Below are positions 14,457 to 37,098 of a stretch of 64,000 nucleotides of DNA, one piece after another. The position numbers were made by a program, and so were the translations under genes. The notes under the pieces are model-generated. The model was not told the DNA's origin. It did not search any database and worked only from the letters and a program-made list of their open reading frames with translations. Each line of letters starts with the position of its first letter. Position 1 is the first letter of the stretch. Origin of the DNA: an uncultured Alphaproteobacteria bacterium (GTDB lineage Bacteria; Pseudomonadota; Alphaproteobacteria; HIMB59; GCA-002718135); NCBI GenBank assembly GCA_902603095.1, contig CACKTS010000002.1:3652-67651 (forward strand), in the 5' to 3' direction.

Positions 14457-14532
14457 GCCCAGGTAGCTCAGTTGGTAGAGCAGTGGACTGAAAATCCACG
14501 TGTCGGTGGTTCAATTCCGCCCCTGGGCACCA
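14457..14532 (+). tRNA. tRNA-Phe (anticodon GAA), CCA encoded
   Basis: Cloverleaf folded by hand: acceptor GCCCAGG/CCUGGGC, D arm GCUC-AGUUGGUA-GAGC, anticodon arm GUGGA-CUGAAAA-UCCAC, T arm GGUGG-UUCAAUU-CCGCC, then ACCA. Confidence 0.95.
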
Positions 14533-14612
14533 CTTTTTATATTAGATAATCAATTATAAATATTTTAGTAAAAAAATAGTATAATAAAAGTATTTCTAAA
14601 TTTTTGATTATA

Positions 14613-15509
14613 ATGAAAAAAAATAAAATTATTGTTAGTTCTTCAGATAGTAAATATTTTTTTTTACTAAAGGAACTTTTTATATCATTAAGTAAATCAG
14701 GTATTCTATCTGAATATCAATTTGCAGTTTTAGATACTGGATTAAATGAAGAACAAAAAAAATATTTTTTAGATAATTCTGTTTTAATTAAAGAGGCAAT
14801 TTGGAATACTCCAGTTCCTAAATACAAAATATTAGGAAGAGATAATTTAAAAACTCAAGTAGCTAGAGCTTATTTGCCAGACTATTTTGATAATTATAAA
14901 TTATATATTTGGTTAGATGCAGATATGTGGTTAAATGACATTAATAGTTTCTCTTTATATGAGAAAGGAGCTTTAAATAGCAAGTTAACAATTGTTCCAC
15001 AAACAGATCGTTCATATAAAAAAAATGCAAATGTTGAATGGTTTTTTGGAATTCCAAGAAAAATTAAAACTATAAATTATAAAAATATAAGTAAATCTAT
15101 ATCGAAAACTCTAGGTAGAAAATATGCTTTTTATAATACTTTAAATGCAGGTGCTTTTGCAATTAATGATAACTCTCATATTTGGGAAGCTTTTCAAAAA
15201 AATATAAAACTTGCTGCAAAAAAAGGAAGAATTTTTGGCACTGATCAAGTTGCTTTAGCATTAAGTATATATGAAGATAAAGTTCCAGCAGAATTTTTAC
15301 CTGCTTATTGTAATTGGATGTGTGAATTTCATATGCCCAAGTTTGACAATAATAACAATCAGTTTGTAGAACCTTATATTCCAAATCAAGCAATTGCTTT
15401 AGTTCATTTGGCTGGTTTAGACGATGTTAGACAAGATAAAAATATTTTAAGTGATGTAGAAACATTAGATGGTAAGCTTATTAAAAAATCCTTAAGATAC
15501 AATGTTTAA
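14613..15509 (+). CDS. glycosyltransferase family 8-like (nucleotide-diphospho-sugar transferase fold) protein
   Basis: About 298 aa (the track starts at TTG 14604; ATG 14613 is likelier). GT8-like landmarks: SSSDSKYF, DxD-type LYIWLDADMWL, LNAGAFAIN, GTDQVALAL, VHLAG. No signal peptide. The stop overlaps the start of the first permease by 8 nt. Confidence 0.55.
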   Translation: MKKNKIIVSSSDSKYFFLLKELFISLSKSGILSEYQFAVLDTGLNEEQKKYFLDNSVLIKEAIWNTPVPKYKILGRDNLKTQVARAYLPDYFDNYKLYIWLDADMWLNDINSFSLYEKGALNSKLTIVPQTDRSYKKNANVEWFFGIPRKIKTINYKNISKSISKTLGRKYAFYNTLNAGAFAINDNSHIWEAFQKNIKLAAKKGRIFGTDQVALALSIYEDKVPAEFLPAYCNWMCEFHMPKFDNNNNQFVEPYIPNQAIALVHLAGLDDVRQDKNILSDVETLDGKLIKKSLRYNV

Positions 15510-16206
15510 ATTTGAGAAATTAGTATTTGGAGACTTGGGTTGGGGTGATGAATTTTTATTTGCAACCTTAATGACAATAACTGTAAGCATTCTTTCTATG
15601 GGTCTCGGTTTGTGTTTAGCAATAATAACTGTTTGGGCAAAATTAATATCTAGTAGATTAACTCGTTTTATTGCTAACCTTTACACAACTGTTGTTCGTG
15701 GTGTACCTGAATTACTAGTTATATATTTAATTTTCTTTGGAGGTAATTCTGTTGTAATGGGTATTGCTAAACTTTTTGGATATGATGGATATATAGAATT
15801 AAATGCTTTAACAATTGGAACTATAGCTATCGCATTTATATCTGCTACTTATTCAAGTGAAGTTATTCGTGCAGCTTATTTATCAGTAAATAAAGGGCAA
15901 GTTGAAGCTGCAAAAGCTCTTGGACTTAAAAAATTTCATATATTTTTAAGGGTTATGGGACCTCAAATAATTAGACATGCTCTACCAGGTATAGGAAATG
16001 TTTGGCAAATAACTTTAAAAGATACCTCCTTAATTTCTGTTACTGGTCTTGTAGAAATAATGAGGCAATCAAGAATTGCTTCCAATGTTGAACATTCTCC
16101 TCTAACTTTTCTTGTTACTGCAGCTTTTTTGTATTTATTTCTCACTACTTTTTCTGGAAAATTTTTTAAAGTTTTAGAGTTAAATTATTCTAAAGGATTT
16201 AACTAA
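15502..16206 (+). CDS. ABC transporter permease, His/Glu/Gln/Arg/opine (polar amino acid) family
   Basis: 234 aa. EAA-loop region GQVEAAKALGLKKFHIFLRVMGPQIIRHALPGIGN. HisQ/OccQ-like size and topology. Confidence 0.85.
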   Translation: MFKFEKLVFGDLGWGDEFLFATLMTITVSILSMGLGLCLAIITVWAKLISSRLTRFIANLYTTVVRGVPELLVIYLIFFGGNSVVMGIAKLFGYDGYIELNALTIGTIAIAFISATYSSEVIRAAYLSVNKGQVEAAKALGLKKFHIFLRVMGPQIIRHALPGIGNVWQITLKDTSLISVTGLVEIMRQSRIASNVEHSPLTFLVTAAFLYLFLTTFSGKFFKVLELNYSKGFN

Positions 16207-16919
16207 TGGACAATTTTGTTAATTACTTAAATGAATCTTTGTTGTTTAGAAACTTTATAGAAGTATTAGGAGGTTTAGATAATACTTTGCTTCTTTTAGT
16301 AATATCACTTCCTATAGGTTTTGTGCTCTCTTTAGTATTTGCATTAGGAAGAGTGTCAAAAAATAAATTAATTTCAAAGACAATAGCTAGTTATATTTTT
16401 GTTATTCGAGGAACGCCCTTACTTGTTCAAATATATTTAATCTATTTTGGATTAGGTTCGATAAAATTTATTAGAGACAGCTTTTTATGGTATCTTTTAG
16501 AAGAGCCATTTTGGTGTGGTGTTCTAGCTCTTACAATAAATACTGTAGCGTATGGAAGTGAAATTTTCAGGGGAGGTATACAATCAATAACAAAAGGACA
16601 AATTGAGTCCGGCTTATCATTGGGTTTTAATAAATTATCGCTTTTAAGAAAAATAATTCTACCGATAGCACTTAGAAAAGTTTTACCTTCATATGGAAAT
16701 GAATTAATTTTAATGGTGAAAGCTACCTCATTAGTTAGTCTTACAACTTATATGGAGATGACTGGTATTGCTAGAAAAATAATGGCTAAAACTTTTGCCC
16801 CAGTTGAAGCATTCATTGCTGCTGGGATATTATATTTATTTTTAAACTTTTTAATGGTTCAGTTTGTTAAGTATTTAGAATGGAAATACAATCCTCACTT
16901 AAGATTAGTCGATTCTTAA
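16206..16919 (+). CDS. ABC transporter permease, His/Glu/Gln/Arg/opine (polar amino acid) family
   Basis: 237 aa. GQIESGLSLGFNKLSLLRKIILPIALRKVLPSYGNE. TAATG junction with the preceding permease. Confidence 0.85.
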   Translation: MDNFVNYLNESLLFRNFIEVLGGLDNTLLLLVISLPIGFVLSLVFALGRVSKNKLISKTIASYIFVIRGTPLLVQIYLIYFGLGSIKFIRDSFLWYLLEEPFWCGVLALTINTVAYGSEIFRGGIQSITKGQIESGLSLGFNKLSLLRKIILPIALRKVLPSYGNELILMVKATSLVSLTTYMEMTGIARKIMAKTFAPVEAFIAAGILYLFLNFLMVQFVKYLEWKYNPHLRLVDS

Positions 16920-17800
16920 TTTAAATTTGATAAGATTTTATTAAGATAATTAAATCCTATCTTTGCATATTCAAAAGGATTAGCTTTTATTGGGTCTTGT
17001 TCTGCTTCTATAATTAACCATTTATTATAATTGTTTTCATATAAAATTTTAAATAAAGGTTCATAATTAATACACCCATCTCCAGGGACAGTGAAAACTC
17101 CATCTAAAAAAGATTCTCTAAAGCTTAAATCATTTTTTAATGAATTTTCTAAAATGCTTCTTCTAATATCTTTACAGTGTACATGATTAATTTTTGCAAC
17201 ATAGTTTTTTAATACTCTTTCATAGTCCGCTTGAGCAAATAATAAGTGACCAGTGTCATAAAGTAAAAAAGTATTATCGTTTGTATTTTCCATGAATCTA
17301 TCAACATCATTTTCTGTTTGTATTATCGTACCCATGTGCTCGTGGTAGGACATTGGAATACCTTCATCATGTAGACGATTTGAGATTTCGTTAATTTTTT
17401 TACAGTACTCAAAAAAATCATTATTTTCCATAAAGGGACGCGATGATAATTTTCTTGATTGATCACCTTGAATTGATCCTGATACATCAGCAAAAACAAA
17501 TACTTCTGCTTTTACCATTTTCAGTAAGTTTAAATGATCTTGCATTTGTGCCCATTCTTCTTTTGCACTTCTGCCCCTTAAAAATGATCCATACCAACCT
17601 CCTGGCATTTTAAGATTATATTTCTTTAGTAAAAAATTAGTAATACCTGGATTTCTTGGAAATTTTCCACCAAGTTCAATTCCAGTGAAACCTGCTAAAG
17701 ATGCTTCTTCTAAACATTGTTCAATTGGAGTATCGCCTCCAAGTTCTGGCATATCATCATTACTCCAAGCGATAGGTGCAATTCCTAATTTAATTTTCAT
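16916..17800 (-). CDS. iolE: myo-inosose-2 dehydratase (IolE)-like sugar-phosphate isomerase/epimerase TIM-barrel protein
   Basis: 294 aa. N-terminus KLGIAPIAWSNDDMPELGGDTPIEQCLEEASLAGFTGIELG and C-terminus FTVPGDGCINYEPLF...WLIIEAEQDP..ANPFEYA closely follow the IolE pattern I recall from B. subtilis. Confidence 0.75.
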   Translation of the reverse strand: MKIKLGIAPIAWSNDDMPELGGDTPIEQCLEEASLAGFTGIELGGKFPRNPGITNFLLKKYNLKMPGGWYGSFLRGRSAKEEWAQMQDHLNLLKMVKAEVFVFADVSGSIQGDQSRKLSSRPFMENNDFFEYCKKINEISNRLHDEGIPMSYHEHMGTIIQTENDVDRFMENTNDNTFLLYDTGHLLFAQADYERVLKNYVAKINHVHCKDIRRSILENSLKNDLSFRESFLDGVFTVPGDGCINYEPLFKILYENNYNKWLIIEAEQDPIKANPFEYAKIGFNYLNKILSNLN

Positions 17801-23849: not shown

Positions 23850-24191
23850 TTAGACAGCATCACTGTCTTTTTCACCAGTTCTTATTCTTATAACTTGATC
23901 TATATTGTAAATGAATATCTTACCATCGCCAATTTTTCCTGAATATGCAGCATTTTTTATTGCATCTGTTACTTTTTCAGCGTCCTCATCTTCGACTATT
24001 ACTTCTAATTTCATTTTAACAAGAAATTCATCATCATATTCTTGATTATTTTCAATGCCACCGCTAGATCCTCTTTGTCTTCCAAAACCCTTAACATCAG
24101 TAACTGTCATACCTGATATACCAACCTCATGTAAGGCTTCTTTTACAACAGATAACTTAAATGGTTTTATTATTGCTTCAATTTTTTTCAT
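23850..24191 (-). CDS. glnB: nitrogen regulatory protein P-II
   Basis: 113 aa. MKKIEAIIKPFKL..., GFGRQ..., B-loop SGKIGDGKIF, C-terminal IRIRTGE. The T-loop apex is divergent (RGSSGGIENNQEYDDEF) but a Tyr is retained at the position equivalent to Tyr51. Confidence 0.9.
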   Translation of the reverse strand: MKKIEAIIKPFKLSVVKEALHEVGISGMTVTDVKGFGRQRGSSGGIENNQEYDDEFLVKMKLEVIVEDEDAEKVTDAIKNAAYSGKIGDGKIFIYNIDQVIRIRTGEKDSDAV

Positions 24192-25638: not shown

Positions 25639-25656
25639 TTTTAATGAGGTAATTTG

Positions 25657-27007
25657 ATGTCAATAAAAGAAATAAAATCAGGAACTTTATATAAAGAGTA
25701 TTCATTAGAAATTCCATATGAGGAAATAAATCAAATTATTGAATCTAAAATAAATGAAATTTTACCAACAGTATCAATGCCTGGTTTTAGAAAAGGAAAG
25801 GCCCCAGCCAATATTGTTAGAAAAAAATATGAAAGCTCAGTAATTTCTGAAGCTATTGAAAATTTAGTACAAACTAAAACAAAAGATTTACTTGATAAAA
25901 AAAATCTTAAACCATTTACTCAACCCAAAATAGATTTAAAAAAATATGAAAAAAATCAACCAATAGAGGTTGAAATAAAAATAGATCTTGAGCCAGAAAT
26001 TATACTTAAAGATTTTAAAAAAATTAATGTTAATAAATATGAAATTAAATTAGATAAATCAATTATAGAAAAAAATTATAAAGAATTTCTTAATTCTCAA
26101 AAACAATATTCAAAAATAGTAAATAACAGAGAAATTAAAATTTCTGATAAAGTATTAATTAATCTTTCTTCTAATGATGAGATTACTCCAGATTTTTTAA
26201 AATTACAAAAAAAACCTTCCAATAATAATTGATTCTGAGTATCAAATATTACCTGATATAGGCACTAAACTAAAAGAAAAAAAACTAAAAAAAGGTGACA
26301 AAACAAATATTAATTTGGATGTATCAAAATCATTAAAACTAAACGAAAAAAAAATGATAAATTTCGAAATAGAAGTTATTGAAATTGAAGAGTCAGTTCC
26401 TTTCGTTGTTGATAAAGAATTTTTAGAAAAAAACAGTTTAAAAAATGAAGAAGAATTGAAAAAAAATCTAGAAATTAATCTTAAATCTCAATTTGAAAAT
26501 GGATTAAAACAAATAGAAAAAAAAGAGCTCATGGATACATTGGATCTAGAGCATCAATTTGATTTACCTCAAGGTATTATAGATCAAGAATTTAATGATA
26601 TTTGGCATAGACTGGAGCATGCAAAAAAAGATGGAAAGTTAGATGATGATGATAAAAAACTAAATGATGATCAGCTAAAAAAAAGATATGAAAAAATTTC
26701 AAAAAGAAGAGTAAAGTTGGCGATCCTGCTACAGCACATTGCCAAAGAAAATAAAATATCTGTTGAAGAAAAAGAAATATCTAATGGAATGATGGCTTAT
26801 GCTTCTCAATATCCTGGTCAAGAGAAGCAAATAATTGAATATTTCAAAAATAATCCATCTTCTATAGAAACTATAAGAGGTCCAATTTTAGAAGAAAAAG
26901 TCATAGAAACTGTCATTTCAGGGGCAAAAGTAACTAAAAAAATAGTAAGTAAAGATGAATATGAAAAACTTGAGAAAAAAACTTTCGACGTTAAAAAGGG
27001 AAAATAA
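25657..27007 (+). pseudogene. tig: trigger factor, reading frame broken by a 1-nt homopolymer indel (possibly a sequencing artefact)
   Basis: Track ORFs 25654-26232 (frame 1; ...MPGFRKGKAPANIVRKKY...) and 26315-27007 (frame 2) are the N- and C-terminal parts of one ~450-aa trigger factor. Frame 2 is already open from 26201 and reads ...KKNLPIIIDSEYQILPDIGTKLKEKKLKKGD... The switch maps to the A8 run at 26207-26214. Confidence 0.85.
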
Positions 27008-27618
27008 TGAAAGATATTGAAAAAATTACTAATAATTTGATACCTATGGTTGTTGAACAATCTTCTCGTGGGGAAAGAGCATATGATATTTATTCACGAT
27101 TGCTGAAAGAAAGAATAATTTTTCTCACTGGACCAATTGATGATAACACTGCAAGTCTAATTTGTGCTCAACTATTATTTTTAGAGTCAGAAAATCCAAA
27201 AAAAGAAATTTCTTTTTATATCAATTCACCAGGTGGTATCGTTTGGTCAGGACTGGCCATTTATGATACTATGCAATACATTTCATCAGAAATTATGACA
27301 ATATGTATAGGGCAAGCTGCTTCTGCTGGTTCTTTGTTACTTACTGCAGGTTCAAAAGACATGAGATTCTCATTGCCTAATTCAAGAATTATGGTTCATC
27401 AACCAAGTGGAGGGTATCAAGGTCAAGTCACTGATATTGAAATTCAAACCACTGAAATAAAAAAAACAAAAGAAAAGTTAAATAAAATTTATGCTAAACA
27501 TACAGACAATAAAATTGAAGATGTTGAAAAAATTATGGAGAGAGATAAATATTTTTCTCCAGAAGAAGCAATAAAGTTTGGTTTGATTGATAAAATTGTG
27601 GAGAATAGAAAAAATTAA
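27007..27618 (+). CDS. clpP: ATP-dependent Clp protease proteolytic subunit
   Basis: 203 aa. ...[12 protein letters not shown]..., catalytic Ser context [11 protein letters not shown], ...MVHQPSGG... Confidence 0.95.
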
Positions 27619-28091
27619 TGACCAAGAAAGAGGAAAAAGAAACTTTATTTTGTTCCTTTTGCGGAAAAAGTCAAAAGGAAGTAAAAAAATTAATAGCAGG
27701 TCCAACTGTTTTTGTATGTGATGAGTGTGTTGAACTATGTATGGACATTATAAAAGAAGATACAAAAAATAGTAAATCAAAATTAAAAAAAGATACTCCA
27801 AAACCAAGAGAAATAAAAAAATTTTTGGATGATTTTGTTATTGGTCAAAATAATGCAAAAAAAATATTATCTGTAGCAGTATATAATCATTATAAAAGAT
27901 TAGCTCATTCTAGTTTTGAAGATGTTGAAATCTCTAAATCTAATATTTTATTAGTTGGTCCAACTGGCACAGGTAAGACTTTATTAGCTCAAACTTTAGC
28001 AAAAATTCTAGATGTCCCATTTACAGTTGCTGATGCTACTAGTTTAACCGAAGCAGGATATGTTGTAAAATTCAAATTAATCAAGTTATAA
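27618..28091 (+). pseudogene. clpX: clpX 5' fragment only (zinc-binding domain and Walker A), truncated at about nt 28065
   Basis: 157-aa [33 protein letters not shown], then ...[39 protein letters not shown], then unrelated VKFKLIKL*. Full-length ClpX is about 420 aa and continues ...EAGYVGEDVENI... Confidence 0.85.
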
Positions 28092-28538
28092 AAATTTGCT
28101 TTTGAAATAATTATTAAAACACCAATAATTGATAAAATTATACCAAAAAAATTGCATAAAGTAAGTTTGTGTTTTAAAAATTAACCAAGAAAAAAGAATT
28201 ATTAATAATGGAGTAATAGATGCCATTATTGAAGAGTTAATAACCATCGAAGTTTGGAGAGATAAATAAGTAAAAGAATTAAAAATAGTTACTCCAAGAA
28301 TTGAAGTAATTAAAATAAATGGAAGATTTTTTTTATATTTTTCAAAATCATCAACTATTTTTTTATATGTAAATGGAAGTAATAATAAAAAAGCTAAAGA
28401 CCATCTTAAAAAACTTAATTTAAATGGTGTTAGTTCATAAAGAGATGCAATTTTACCTGTAAAAAAATTACCTGACCAAAATAAAGATGAGGCTACTAAT
28501 AATATAAAAGCAAAATAAATACTTTTGGTATTAACCAT
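28069..28538 (-). pseudogene. EamA/DMT-family transporter gene, 5' half only, also carrying a 1-nt frameshift
   Basis: The track ORF (150 aa) is EamA-like up to ...IILFSWLIFK. A second frame then continues ...[35 protein letters not shown], and similarity stops where the antisense of clpX begins. The family is normally about 290 aa with 10 TM helices. Confidence 0.7.
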
Positions 28539-32417: not shown

Positions 32418-33752
32418 TTAATTAACCGAAATATTTAATGATTTTAGTTTTCGATAAAGTGCTGTTCTTTCCATACCAGTAAATTCTGATACTTTAGATA
32501 TATTACCACTAAACCTTTTTATTTGCGATAATAAATATTCTTTTTCAAACTCTAGTCTAGCTTCTTTGAGAGATAAGTCAAAATTATTAGAAGTATTTTG
32601 TTCTTTGTTGTAATCGCCCATTTCTAAAGCTAAATTATCAACATCAAGTATCAAATCTTTGGAAGAAGATTGATTAAGTATGACAGTTTTTTCTACATAA
32701 TTTACTAATTGAGCTATATTTCCAGGCCAATCAAACATTTCTAATTTTGAAATAGCTGATTTAGAAAAAGTAAGTTTGATATTTCTGTTATTAAATTTTA
32801 AAATATAATAATTTAGTATAGGTAATATATCAGCTACTCTTTCAGATAAACTTGGGCAAATTAAATGATCTACCTTTATTCTTTCATATAATCTTTTCAT
32901 AAAATTACCATTCAATATCTCATCCTCTATTTTTTTTTCAGAAATAGATATAATTTTTTGATCAAGTGTTACTTTAGAATTTTGAAAAAAGTCTTTGGAT
33001 TCAATAAAGAACAAAAACTGTTTTTGAAATTTAAGTGGTATTTGATCAATATTAAGAAGAATTAAAGTATTATTATTTGACCTTACAAAAATATTTTCAT
33101 TCAAATTTTTTATATTTTCAGAAAAAAGAACCTCTAGATTTTTTTCATTTAAATTTGAAAAATCAATTAAAATTGGTATTTTTTCTTTATACTTTGAATT
33201 CTTATGAATATTATTAGCTATTAATTTTTTTCCAACACCAAATGGCCCTTCTATCAATAACCTTGATTTAGATTTAGAAAATTCAATAATTTTTTTATTT
33301 ACTTGAGTATTAAAAACAGAGCTTCCTACTAAATTTTCATCATCCGAAATTAATTCTTTTAAATCTTTATTTTCATTATGAAGTTTAGAGCTTTCAATAG
33401 CTCGTTTAGCTAAAATGATTAATTTATCACTATTAAAAGGTTTTTCTAAAAAATCATAAGCTCCATTTTTTATTGCACTTACAGCTAAATCAACTGTTCC
33501 ATGACCACTAATTATTATTATAGGTATTTCTTTTTTAATTTTTTTGAATTCTTTTAAAAGTTCAATTCCATCTAGTTTACTATTTGAAAGCCAAACATCT
33601 AAAATAATAAGATTAGGGTTATACTTATTATAATTTGATAATGCTTCTTCTGAATTTAAAGCAGAATAAGTTAAATATTGTTCATCTTTTAATATTTCTG
33701 ATATAAGAAAACAAATATCTTTTTCATCATCAATAATTAATACTTTATACAT
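32418..33752 (-). CDS. ntrX: response regulator NtrX (receiver, degenerate AAA+ domain and Fis-type HTH)
   Basis: 444 aa. Receiver VLIIDDE...LIILDVWL...EKPF. AAA+ with GPFGVGKK but no GAFTGA. C-terminal HTH ISKVSEFTGMERTALYRKLK. Overlaps the ntrY stop by 8 nt. Confidence 0.8.
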   Translation of the reverse strand: MYKVLIIDDEKDICFLISEILKDEQYLTYSALNSEEALSNYNKYNPNLIILDVWLSNSKLDGIELLKEFKKIKKEIPIIIISGHGTVDLAVSAIKNGAYDFLEKPFNSDKLIILAKRAIESSKLHNENKDLKELISDDENLVGSSVFNTQVNKKIIEFSKSKSRLLIEGPFGVGKKLIANNIHKNSKYKEKIPILIDFSNLNEKNLEVLFSENIKNLNENIFVRSNNNTLILLNIDQIPLKFQKQFLFFIESKDFFQNSKVTLDQKIISISEKKIEDEILNGNFMKRLYERIKVDHLICPSLSERVADILPILNYYILKFNNRNIKLTFSKSAISKLEMFDWPGNIAQLVNYVEKTVILNQSSSKDLILDVDNLALEMGDYNKEQNTSNNFDLSLKEARLEFEKEYLLSQIKRFSGNISKVSEFTGMERTALYRKLKSLNISVN

Positions 33753-35892
33753 TTAAATTTTCAAATATTATTATGCTTGTTGTTCCGGCCATTTGTTTGT
33801 TTTTTTCTATTCTAATTTTTCCATTATGATCTTCAATAATTTTTTTAACTATTGAGAGTCCTAGCCCTGTTCCTTTATTTTTTGTAGTAAAATATGGCTC
33901 AAAAATTTTACTAGCAGTTTCTTTTGATATACCAACCCCATTATCTACAAACTCTATAAAAATCTTGTTATTTTCAATTCTTAAACTAACACTAATTGAT
34001 GGATTTGGAATTTTTTCAACAGATTCAACAGCATTTTTAATTAAATTATTAAAACTTTGAGTAAGTTGGAATTTATCAAATTGAAAATATATCTCTTTAT
34101 CTTCTAAATCAATTTTAAATTTAATATTTTTATGTGAATTAGAAAATAAAATATATGACTCATGTAAACATTTAGATAGATTATCTAGTTTGATTTCAGG
34201 TTCAGGCATTCTTGCAAAAGATGAAAATTCATCTATCAGTTTGCCGATATCATCTACTTGTCTTGATATTGTGTTTGTTAAAGTTTTAATATCATCATTT
34301 TCAAAATCATTATTTTTATATTTTTTTTCAATTCTTTCTGCTGATAATTTTATAGGTGTTAAAGGATTTTTAACTTCATGTGCTATTTTTCTTGCAATAT
34401 CAGACCAAGCTGCATGTTTTTCTGCTAAAATAAATGATGTGGTGTCATCTATTGCAACAACATAACCATTTATTTTCTCTTCTTTAAACTCTTTAATTAT
34501 CCTAACATTAAAATTTCTAAGATCATCATTAACCAATATTTCTACCTGAAAATTTTCAAGTATTTTTTTTGATTTTTTAAAGCTATTAAATATATTTTGC
34601 CACTCGGGAAAAATTATTAAAAAACTTTCATTTTCCTTTAACTTTTTTGCACCTTTAAAAAGTTTTTTTGCAGTTTGATTATAAAAAATAATATTAAAAT
34701 TATTATCTAATGAGATAACCCCTATTGTTAATAAGCTTAAAATAGCTTCGATAAATAATCTTTTTTCTTCATCTTCATTGCTCTTCTTAATTAGTTGATT
34801 TTGCTGGTTTTCAATTTCTACTATCATCTTGTTATAAGATGAAATTAATACTTTTATTTCTTCAAATTGATCTATTTCAGATACTTTAGCTTCAAAATTC
34901 CCTTTAGAGATTTCATTTGCTGATTCAATTAAATTAGATATGGGCTTTGACAGTTTTCTAGCTAAATTAAAACCAATTAAAATTGCTATTAAAATAAAAC
35001 CTATAGAAAAAAGAACAAATATCATCGAGTAAGTTATTTGTATGCCTGCACTTTCACTTTCTTTAGTGGTATATATTTTATAAGCATCTTTAGTTGCAGA
35101 AATATGATCCCAAATATTAGTATTTAATTCTCTATTAACTTGCATAAAGACATCATTTAAAAAATTAATTCTTTTATAAGCTGAAATTGAATTTTTATTT
35201 ACTTGAAAAATAAATACTCTATTTTGATCTAAAATTTTAAATATGTCCTCTGAAGGAAATAAAAAATTTTTATTTTCTTTATCCTTAAAATTTAAATAAA
35301 TTTCTCCAGATTTGTTAAATAAATAAATATTTGAAATAGTTCTTAAATTAATAAATTCGCTCAAACCTTGATTAATGGAATTAATATTTACTTCATTGTT
35401 CTTAGAAACCTTAAATATTTCTCTAGTAATTAATTGAGTATCTGAAATTATTTCAGCTTGTATTTCATTTTCATAATCTCTTGCAACGATATTAGAATTG
35501 ACTACAACCTCTCTTACTGCTCCCCCATACCAAGTTCTAAATTCTAAATTAAAAAAAAGTGAAGTTATAATCACAAGACCTATAGCTGGACCAACTGCCA
35601 TTGCTGCAAATAAATTAACAAATTTTATATATAATTTAGACTCATCCTTCTTATTTCTTCTGTAAATAAAAATTAAAATTACTTGTCTTAAAATTAAAGC
35701 TAAAAGTAATATTACAAGGAAGACATCTGCTAATAGAAAATATTGTAATTGCAGTGGATTTTTAACTAAATTGTTATTTGGCAACATTAAATAAAAAGTG
35801 ATTGAAAAACTGAGAAGTATTAGGCTGAGTAATAGATAAAACGAAAACTTTGTTAGATATAGTTTATTTAATATTTTTGTTAAACTGATCAC
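33745..35892 (-). CDS. ntrY: sensor histidine kinase NtrY (TM, HAMP, PAS, HisKA and HATPase domains)
   Basis: 715 aa. GTG start. N-terminal TM helices. H-box IARKIAHEVKNPLTPI. ATP-lid ...NAVES..., ...DNGVGI..., ...GTGLGLSIVKKIIEDH... Confidence 0.8.
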   Translation of the reverse strand: MISLTKILNKLYLTKFSFYLLLSLILLSFSITFYLMLPNNNLVKNPLQLQYFLLADVFLVILLLALILRQVILIFIYRRNKKDESKLYIKFVNLFAAMAVGPAIGLVIITSLFFNLEFRTWYGGAVREVVVNSNIVARDYENEIQAEIISDTQLITREIFKVSKNNEVNINSINQGLSEFINLRTISNIYLFNKSGEIYLNFKDKENKNFLFPSEDIFKILDQNRVFIFQVNKNSISAYKRINFLNDVFMQVNRELNTNIWDHISATKDAYKIYTTKESESAGIQITYSMIFVLFSIGFILIAILIGFNLARKLSKPISNLIESANEISKGNFEAKVSEIDQFEEIKVLISSYNKMIVEIENQQNQLIKKSNEDEEKRLFIEAILSLLTIGVISLDNNFNIIFYNQTAKKLFKGAKKLKENESFLIIFPEWQNIFNSFKKSKKILENFQVEILVNDDLRNFNVRIIKEFKEEKINGYVVAIDDTTSFILAEKHAAWSDIARKIAHEVKNPLTPIKLSAERIEKKYKNNDFENDDIKTLTNTISRQVDDIGKLIDEFSSFARMPEPEIKLDNLSKCLHESYILFSNSHKNIKFKIDLEDKEIYFQFDKFQLTQSFNNLIKNAVESVEKIPNPSISVSLRIENNKIFIEFVDNGVGISKETASKIFEPYFTTKNKGTGLGLSIVKKIIEDHNGKIRIEKNKQMAGTTSIIIFENLNV

Positions 35893-35957: not shown

Positions 35958-37098
35958 ATGAAAAAGATAAAAAATGCACTTGTTATCCTAGCTGGAGGTA
36001 CAGGCAAAAGATTTGGTAAAAATTTACCAAAGCAATTTAATGAAATTAATGGTGAAAATCTAATACATTTTTTTTTAAAACGTGTAGACACAAGGAATTT
36101 CGATAAAATTTTGATTGTTCTTAAGCATTCTCATTTTAAATATATTAAAAATCTAAAATTTGATTTTCCTTCAGTAGATTTTCTTTTTACTAATGCAGGA
36201 AAAAGTAGACAAATTTCTTCTTTAAATGCTCTAAAAAAATTGAAACCATTTGAACCAAGAAATATTTTAATTCATGATGCAGCAAGACCATTCTGTACAA
36301 ATAATTTGATATTAAAAATACTTAAACAGCTAAAAAAAAATTATTCTGCAATACCATATGTTTTGAATCCTGATAAAAAAGTTTTAGGATACAAAGAATT
36401 TAATCAAAACTTAAAATTTGTACAAACCCCTCAAGGGTTTAAATTTAAAACAATTTTTGAAGCACATCATAAAAGTTTAATTAATAATGCAAAAGATGAC
36501 TCTATATTATTACCAAAAGAAAAAATAAATTTTATAAAAGGTGAAAAATTAAATTTTAAAATAACATATCCAGATGATTTTAATTACTTTAAACTATTTT
36601 TAAAACCTATATTCAAAACAGGTATTGGTTATGATATTCATCGAATTGATACTAAAACAAAAAATGGTTTGAAACTTTGTGGTATAAAAATAAATCATAG
36701 TAAGCTAATAGGTCATTCTGATGCTGATGTTGGTATACATGCAATATGTGATAGCATCTTTGGAGCACTATCTATGAAAGATATTGGATATTATTTTTCT
36801 AATAAAAATTCAAAGTGGAAAAACAAAAATTCTCTTCATTTTATAAATTTTGCAAAAGAAAAAACTTAAAGAGAAAAAATTCTTTATAGTTAATCTTGAT
36901 ATTAATATTATATGTGAAAAACCTAATATAAGTAAATATAGAAAAAAAATGATTGAAAATTTATCTTCTATATTAAAAATACCTGATAAAATTATTTCAA
37001 TTAAAGCAACTTCAAATGAAAAAATAGGCTTTATAGGAGATGGCTTGGGTATTGCCGCAGAATCAATAATCCAAATTTCAAATGAAAAACTTTACTAA
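35958..37098 (+). pseudogene. ispDF: bifunctional IspD/IspF (MEP cytidylyltransferase / MEcPP synthase), frame broken by a 1-nt homopolymer indel (probably a sequencing artefact)
   Basis: Track ORF 35958-36869 holds IspD (ILAGGTGKRFG...) and the start of IspF (GIGYDIHR...GHSDADVGIHAICDS...). ORF 36850-37098 holds the rest of IspF (...NLDINIICEKP...KATSNEKIGFIGDGLGIAAE). Removing one A from the A6 run at 36859-36864 restores ...FAKEKLKEKKFFIVNLD... Confidence 0.85.

Follow-up and report, generated by a model that had tools for sequence, protein, structure and literature searches.

Is a glycosyltransferase gene that overlaps a pair of ATP-binding cassette (ABC) permease genes a working part of the transporter, or does it merely stand next to it? 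The question is raised by a locus within a 64,000-nucleotide stretch of DNA (the window; G+C content 26.8%) from an uncultured alphaproteobacterium of the HIMB59 lineage, the source assembly of which comprises 1.09 Mb in 59 contigs, is 67.5% complete and holds the window on contig C2. Downstream of a plus-strand tRNA-Phe (GAA) gene identified by ARAGORN (14457..14532), three further plus-strand genes encode a 298-amino-acid (aa) protein (14613..15509), a HisQ/ArtQ/OccQ-like ABC permease of the polar amino acid type (permQ, 15502..16206) and a HisM/ArtM/OccM-like ABC permease (permM, 16206..16919), and these are followed by the convergent gene iolE (16916..17800). The original prediction for this DNA took the 298-aa protein to be a GT8-like glycosyltransferase and offered two explanations for the lack of a substrate-binding protein (SBP) and an importer-type ATPase in the window: either the missing parts are supplied in trans, or the enzyme is functionally tied to the permeases. 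We consider it probable, at roughly 0.75, that two unrelated things lie side by side here, namely a replacement cassette carrying the glycosyltransferase and a conserved importer whose parts are dispersed in the genome.

The locus was compared across 116 species-level genomes of the family, the window's own included, 11 of which are of high quality. permM was found in 91 genomes representing all 8 genera and in all 11 high-quality genomes, and both permease genes are intact and 80–96% identical across the window's genus. The GT8-like gene was found in only 19 genomes (the window's own included), two of them of high quality and all belonging to one genus. The permease pair is core and the GT8-like gene is accessory. 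Conservation of the gene trio among relatives, which had been suggested as a check on a functional tie, therefore holds within the GT8 loci of the genus, where permQ directly follows the glycosyltransferase gene at all 17 loci that have downstream DNA, but not across the family. Of 18 related GT8 loci, 17 have the order glycosyltransferase-permQ-permM followed by convergent iolE, and the 18th ends within the glycosyltransferase gene.

Genomes of the genus that lack the GT8-like gene carry a GT9 heptosyltransferase-like gene (324–330 aa; PF01075, E = 1e-14 and 1e-16), a member of an unrelated sequence family, at the same position between tRNA-Phe and permQ. The GT9-like gene is present in 71 of the 116 genomes (8 of the 11 of high quality), and none of the 116 has both genes. 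In blastn comparisons of the window with GT9-type loci (L049/L050), homology runs through infA and tRNA-Phe, is lost at 14544/14539 and resumes at 15501, one base ahead of the permQ ATG. These breakpoints delimit a variable plus-strand slot (14545..15500) that holds the GT8-like gene here and the GT9-like gene in most relatives, with tRNA-Phe as its conserved left flank; the tRNA gene precedes the slot in all seven related loci scanned. A single site, conserved flanks and non-homologous alternative cassettes, as found here, are the marks of a replacement island. Genome G001 belongs to a different genus; there, murA-hisG-hisD-infA-tRNA-Phe-GT9 is followed by no permease genes, these being located on another contig, so a glycosyltransferase was the older tenant of the site. 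In G115, a TauD gene on the opposite strand lies between the GT9-like gene and permQ.

Several draft contigs end (G005:C43) or start (G058:C8, G023:C19, G076:C8, G105:C59 and G011:C17) within the slot or at its edge; G005 has neither cassette, and its contig stops at the start of permQ. Such contig ends fit what a population-variable, assembly-breaking site would give.

Longer GT8 cassettes also exist. A Methyltransf_24 gene (225–230 aa) lies directly 5' of the glycosyltransferase gene, overlapping or abutting it, in seven loci, six of which also have a pyrroloquinoline quinone (PQQ) dehydrogenase gene (733–739 aa), and an OYE-type flavoprotein (OYE/FMN oxidoreductase) gene is present in two loci, L028 and L034; Pfam was run on the L028 copies of these accessory genes only. 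The longer cassettes correspond to L028:2994-7999 and to equivalent stretches in L030, L031, L033, L035, L037 and L039. An N-terminal hydrophobic segment is present in the L028 PQQ dehydrogenase, as is a heme-c-like CSSCH motif.

The cassettes do not follow the phylogeny of their flanks. On a maximum-likelihood tree of permQ, permM, iolE, GATase and glpK from 28 loci (the window together with 17 GT8 and 10 GT9 loci), six changes between the GT8 and GT9 states are needed, and at least five of them are forced by well-supported branches. The GT8 locus L027 is sister to the GT9 locus L049 with a support of 99, and the GT8 locus L034 is nested among the GT9 loci L053, L042 and L043. GT8 alleles are only 54–77% identical where five flanking proteins, the permeases included, are 96–97% identical, and across 153 pairs the correlation between GT8 identity and flank identity is r = 0.40. 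Both cassette distribution and cassette divergence are thus uncoupled from the core phylogeny. No integrase or insertion sequence element was seen at the slot.

This pattern is in keeping with a flexible island of the replacement type that serves a surface glycan. Glycotype islands in streamlined marine alphaproteobacteria, exchanged by homologous recombination, have been described, and hypervariability uncoupled from the flanks is reported as a pattern of surface-glycan islands (PMC10734472). The slot shares with them a fixed position, conserved flanks, non-homologous glycosyltransferase cassettes and a distribution that does not follow flank phylogeny. It differs in being very small (one to four genes, ~1–5.4 kb, compared with a large O-chain cluster), in abutting a tRNA gene and in leading straight into a transporter operon. 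No published description of the tRNA-Phe/permQ slot was found in our literature searches, which is not proof of absence. The window's glycosyltransferase gene would then be one allele of an island that stretches from the 3' end of tRNA-Phe to the permQ start codon, into which either a GT8-like gene (in some species together with Methyltransf_24 and PQQ dehydrogenase genes) or a GT9 heptosyltransferase-like gene has probably been exchanged through homologous recombination in the conserved flanks.

That the 298-aa protein is GT8-like, as originally predicted, was borne out by profile, motif and fold evidence. The open reading frame (ORF) spans 14604/14613-15509; read from the ATG at 14613 it encodes 298 aa, and the product contains SSDSKYFF, WLDADMW, LNAGAFAIN, GTDQVALAL and LVHLAG. 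Its family numbers 958 cluster representatives at E ≤ 1e-3, and 561 at the stricter limit of E ≤ 1e-10. When 61 full-length members (25–48% identity) are aligned, D102 and G180 are invariant, and at least 90% of the sequences keep D104, N178, Q212, N234, W235, P257 and H265. The motifs occur in the order DxD, NxG, DQ and HxxG, which we take to be that of the catalytic residues of LgtC from Neisseria meningitidis; the C-terminal set (N178, G180, Q212 and H265, each at least 90% conserved) follows the order expected for LgtC, to whose catalytic residues it may correspond. The Pfam GT8 model is matched by 28 of the 61 homologs at E ≤ 0.01 (best 2.2e-9). A profile of the 61 homologs found LgtC (1g9r, 1.5e-6) and the GT8 domain of WbbM (6u4b, 1.9e-5) among solved structures, and in the HMMER alignment WLDADMW stands opposite YLDIDVL of LgtC, so that DxD faces DID. 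The single-sequence search of solved structures gave one chance-level match (E = 0.038, an RNA acetyltransferase), and no NCBIfam model matches the protein.

An AlphaFold (AF2) model of the protein had a predicted local distance difference test score of 96.5 and a predicted template modelling score of 0.93. Foldseek placed LgtC and WbbM at ranks 1–3, followed by glycogenin (E down to 4e-9). VIA-align matched the model, within residues 1–298, to the UGGT catalytic domain (GT24), glycogenin, LgtC, LARGE1, WbbM, 3tzt and GlyE, with Z scores of 16.8–19.3 over 208–247 residues and root-mean-square deviations of 3.0–3.8. The modelled GT-A fold is closest to solved GT8 and GT24 enzymes (Z = 18.1 to 1g9r over 235 residues and Z = 17.5 to 6u4b), the protein carries the DxD motif of GT8 enzymes, and the family profile matches the N-terminal nucleotide-binding half of LgtC, DxD included. 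The window's protein is just 15–17% identical to LgtC, WbbM and GlyE, and it differs from bacterial GT8 enzymes in its family-specific LPxxCNW motif and P257 in the C-terminal third. Its prediction as a divergent GT8-type, retaining-type glycosyltransferase of GT-A fold is well supported by sequence profile and structural model, and its sequence places it as a divergent GT8 relative below strict Pfam membership.

Such an enzyme would be cytoplasmic and metal-dependent, and would most likely add a sugar to a cell-envelope glycan, either of the lipooligosaccharide/lipopolysaccharide type or a related surface polysaccharide. Close homologs carry the source label 'lipopolysaccharide biosynthesis glycosyltransferase', a product of automatic naming, and the mutual exclusion with a GT9 heptosyltransferase-like gene suggests one envelope pathway. 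The alternative that survives best is that the enzyme is unrelated to the transporter but makes a non-envelope product (a glycolipid, or a soluble glycoside or compatible solute) or glycosylates a protein. Glycogenin, a GT8 enzyme outside lipopolysaccharide synthesis, is among the top fold matches, and long fused forms of the family together with GT41/TPR neighbors point to protein glycosylation in some members. In addition, in two small complete genomes from another family (G503, locus L080; G230, locus L087) a homolog lies between ftsJ and the phospholipid genes pssA-psd, beside an IMP dehydrogenase gene. We regard this alternative as improbable though not negligible, given the exclusion of GT8 by GT9, the names given to close homologs and the hypervariability of the slot, which is the pattern of surface-glycan islands.

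Elsewhere in the class, the glycosyltransferase family keeps other company. Members were found in 28 of 401 sampled genomes, and we scanned 77 neighboring ORFs at 26 of these distant loci (from 102 listed, after glycosyltransferase ORFs and three multi-copy loci had been dropped). None of the 77 encodes a BPD permease, an SBP or an ABC ATPase. The neighbors include genes for GT2, GT41/TPR and EryCIII-like glycosyltransferases, Methyltransf_24, FkbM, a C-methyltransferase and acyltransferase_3. The link between this glycosyltransferase and ABC permeases is confined to the window's genus.

Both permeases match BPD_transp_1 (permQ, 2e-17; permM, 1.6e-20) and TIGR01726, the HEQRo 3-TM domain (51.3 and 77.4 bits in the two permeases; cut-off 42.2). 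The best NCBIfam models are HisQ (5.7e-48) and ArtQ (1.1e-47) for permQ and HisM (2e-55) and ArtM (1.1e-54) for permM, all of them below equivalog cut-offs. Together with the binding protein described below, these profiles suggest a polar-amino-acid importer of the arginine/opine type. In G001 (L047:10731-11963) and G106 (L048:8673-9941), from genera that retain linkage of the SBP gene to the permeases, the gene immediately after permM encodes a DAO-type FAD oxidoreductase, an assignment for which Pfam was applied to the G001 copy alone. This enzyme, possibly an opine or D-amino-acid oxidase, could be a hint at the transported substrate.

Where, then, is the rest of the importer? A search for an orphan SBP gene elsewhere, as had been suggested, found a single-copy ortholog (~70% identical) in 96 of the 116 genomes, including all 11 of high quality and 16 of the 19 with the GT8-like gene. 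Inspection of three loci (G079 and G052 from the window's genus, G112 from genus g6) showed it between ccmH and folD without adjoining permeases, and in G079 the permeases share its contig at a distance of 488 kb. The original prediction had held that a complete SBP and ATPase set directly beside the permeases in other strains would imply simple local gene loss. Adjoining genes do occur in three other genera, with the order ccmEFGH-SBP-permQ-permM in G108 and G106 and ATPase-SBP-permQ-permM in G001. With the SBP gene linked to the permeases in three genera and located at ccm-folD in inspected relatives from the window's genus, this arrangement indicates that the two permease genes moved while the SBP gene stayed behind, rather than that genes were lost locally. 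We propose that in an ancestor of the genus the pair moved away from the SBP gene and landed downstream of the glycosyltransferase slot, and that the SBP, having stayed at ccm-folD, would act in trans.

Among solved structures, the best match of the SBP is 8HQR (6.5e-62), followed by octopine- and nopaline-binding proteins. 8HQR is SAR11_1210 of Ca. Pelagibacter ubique, an L-arginine binder with a dissociation constant of 32 pM, and ABC SBP genes of strain HTCC1062 are reported to be colocalised with permease or ATPase genes (PMC11485210); in the same strain OccT, the SAR11_1210 product, rises under nitrogen limitation (PMC3870248). permQ and permM would thus be the membrane subunits of a conserved arginine/opine-type importer, the substrate of which may be arginine. 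The system resembles HisJQMP, ArtPIQM and OccQMPT in having the same two permeases with HEQRo 3-TM domains and a cognate SBP_bac_3 protein, here closest to the SAR11_1210 structure; it differs in that its parts are scattered, with the SBP at ccm-folD, the permeases at tRNA-Phe/iolE and no dedicated ATPase.

An ATPase gene adjoins the permeases only in G001, and no ATPase dedicated to the importer was found in G079, which is 96% complete. There, four permease genes of the polar-amino-acid type make up two systems, and a single ATPase is more than 40% identical to that of G001 (52%); it lies in the yhdW operon. The window's own genome has two candidate ATPases, each within another operon, and two SBP_bac_3 genes, each in another complete operon. 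Judging from these gene counts, the ATPase is probably borrowed from a general amino-acid system of the YhdWXYZ type, in which it would be the YhdZ-type subunit. Shared ('multitask') ATPases of the MsmX/MsiK type are known from sugar importers. The likeness is that one ATPase would serve more than one permease pair, as the two systems and one matching ATPase of G079 suggest; here the sharing is deduced from gene counts in draft genomes. An importer of this class with a distant SBP and a borrowed ATPase, which would amount to a streamlining solution, was undocumented in the literature we met, in which no aimed search was made. Supply of the missing parts in trans is thus supported for the SBP, by an unlinked ortholog in 96 of 116 relatives, and plausible for the ATPase.

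The anatomy on which a functional module had been proposed was confirmed by coordinates and junctions. The glycosyltransferase gene and permQ overlap by 8 nucleotides (junction ACAATGTTTAAA), permQ and permM are joined by TAATG, and permM overlaps the convergent iolE (TIGR04379, 2e-110, 368.9 bits, cut-off 290) by 4 nucleotides. A Pfam scan that took in 64 of the window's 70 listed ORFs with a length of 100 aa or more (six shadow or edge ORFs were omitted) agreed that there is no match to an SBP family and no importer-type ATPase; the sole ABC ATPase is a 606-aa two-domain protein of the ABC-F type (951-2771). In the module originally envisaged, the glycosyltransferase-fold enzyme glycosylates or traps an imported solute, such as an inositol- or opine-like glycoside, and replaces the missing SBP or ATPase. 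The overlap is indeed kept in 16 of the 17 GT8 loci (by coordinates), but overlap is nothing special in this DNA. Among 49 same-strand neighboring ORF pairs of the window, with start positions taken mechanically from the ORF list, 23 overlap and 8 do so by exactly 8 nucleotides, including the unrelated pairs trpC/moaC and gltX/citrate synthase; the median same-strand gap is 0, in a group with genomes of 1.0–1.6 Mb. Since 8-nucleotide overlaps are common among unrelated genes, the real overlap of the glycosyltransferase gene with permQ is not evidence of the translational coupling that had been read from it.

Scans for signals between 14200 and 17900 were uninformative: shuffled sequence led one to expect 22.3 promoter-like sites and 1.1 terminators, and 18 and 0 were found, with no terminator-like site between the genes either. 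Only two RNA runs contained 5–7% of the sampled words. They yielded short contigs that cover the tRNA region, plus a 241-nucleotide piece inside permM; no contig crossed the glycosyltransferase gene or its junction with permQ in these two runs, which are silent on co-transcription.

Despite the shared strand, the conserved overlap, the absence of a terminator-like site and the missing SBP and ATPase, a functional module is very unlikely. Core permeases would have to be tied to an accessory enzyme that alternates with an unrelated GT9-like gene in 71 genomes, that diverges to 54% identity beside permeases 96–97% identical, and whose distant relatives have no ABC neighbors; a conserved cognate SBP is available in trans, and in G115 the TauD gene parts the slot from permQ. 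The inositol link drawn from iolE is also weak. iolE is convergent, and most relatives have a cytochrome c' gene (PF01322, 147–149 aa, with a signal-peptide-like N-terminus) between it and the permeases; permM abuts iolE only where this gene is missing, as in the window (16909-16943 compared with L049:10652-11128) and in a few relatives such as L022, L025, L030 and L036. A role akin to galactinol synthase was likewise rejected, as nothing except the convergent iolE neighbor lies behind it. We give equally little credence to the view that the slot and the arginine/opine-type permeases form one transcription unit, with a distant SBP and a borrowed ATPase completing the importer, or in its stronger form that the enzyme also acts on the imported solute. 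If the single transcription unit were real, an envelope-glycan cassette, whichever is carried, would be co-expressed with a nitrogen-scavenging importer.

That the permease pair is an orphaned, decaying remnant of no working importer is also hardly credible, even though no SBP or ATPase gene adjoins the pair in the genus and the 96%-complete G079 yielded no dedicated ATPase: the two genes are intact and well conserved throughout the genus and occur in all 11 high-quality genomes, the SBP ortholog is equally conserved, and dead genes are unlikely to be kept in genomes so small and so tightly packed.

Several points weigh against an independent cassette beside a dispersed importer. The 298-aa protein itself misses the Pfam GT8 threshold (PF01501; E = 0.004, 17.2 bits, cut-off 24.3), and only its N-terminal half matches (residues 7–108). 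The pssA/psd context in G230 and G503 would suit a glycolipid role too. Whereas every one of the 18 usable GT8 loci went into the flank tree, the GT9 loci were represented by only 10 out of 71, chosen by us. A same-strand glycosyltransferase gene directly precedes the permeases in every fetched locus of the genus, so that co-transcription, and with it some regulatory tie, may exist. The case for a shared ATPase rests on absence in incomplete or draft genomes. Finally, supply of the SBP in trans is seen in relatives and not in the window's own 67.5%-complete genome, in which no SBP ortholog was found. Eight proteins of the SBP neighborhood (argG-like, folD, SBP and ccmH, G, F, E and C) are all absent from that assembly, and since the whole argG-folD-SBP-ccm neighborhood is missing, the absence of the SBP is an assembly gap and not evidence of loss.

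Other parts of the window show further irregularities. The trigger factor (25654-27007) is split into a Trigger_N ORF (192 aa) and a Trigger_C ORF (230 aa) lying 82 nucleotides apart, which could be due to a frameshift, to an error in sequencing or to a genuine break in the gene. The ClpX ORF (27618-28538 region) is just 157 aa long, comprising the zinc finger and the start of the AAA domain, and meets a convergent 150-aa EamA half-transporter ORF at ~28090; the truncated look of the two ORFs points to a deletion, rearrangement or assembly join there. An IspD/IspF fusion ORF (35958-37081) stops after ~80 of 155 YgbB positions and is followed by a 212-nucleotide gap and pgpA, making a frameshift in ispF possible. 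The window also has a P-II gene adjoining glnA, and NtrY/NtrX (23850-24191 and 32418-35892). Most Pelagibacterales are without P-II, according to PMC3870248, and the presence of P-II indicates that nitrogen regulation here differs from that of Ca. P. ubique.

The gene arrangement at the locus is an ordinary one, a swappable glycosyltransferase gene beside two ordinary transporter genes, and its constituents are of known kinds in a new instance: a small replacement island that carries a divergent GT8 enzyme, next to a dispersed arginine/opine-type importer. The main value of the result is a correction, in that adjacency and overlap in a very compact genome had been mistaken for a functional module. 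For streamlined genomes in general it is a caution that transporter loss or novelty should not be inferred from local gene context, the importer here having been scattered by rearrangement such that the SBP stayed, the permeases moved and no ATPase of their own accompanies them. The compact and precisely bounded glycosyltransferase slot, with its old and highly divergent alleles, is a possible marker of surface-glycan types in an abundant marine lineage.

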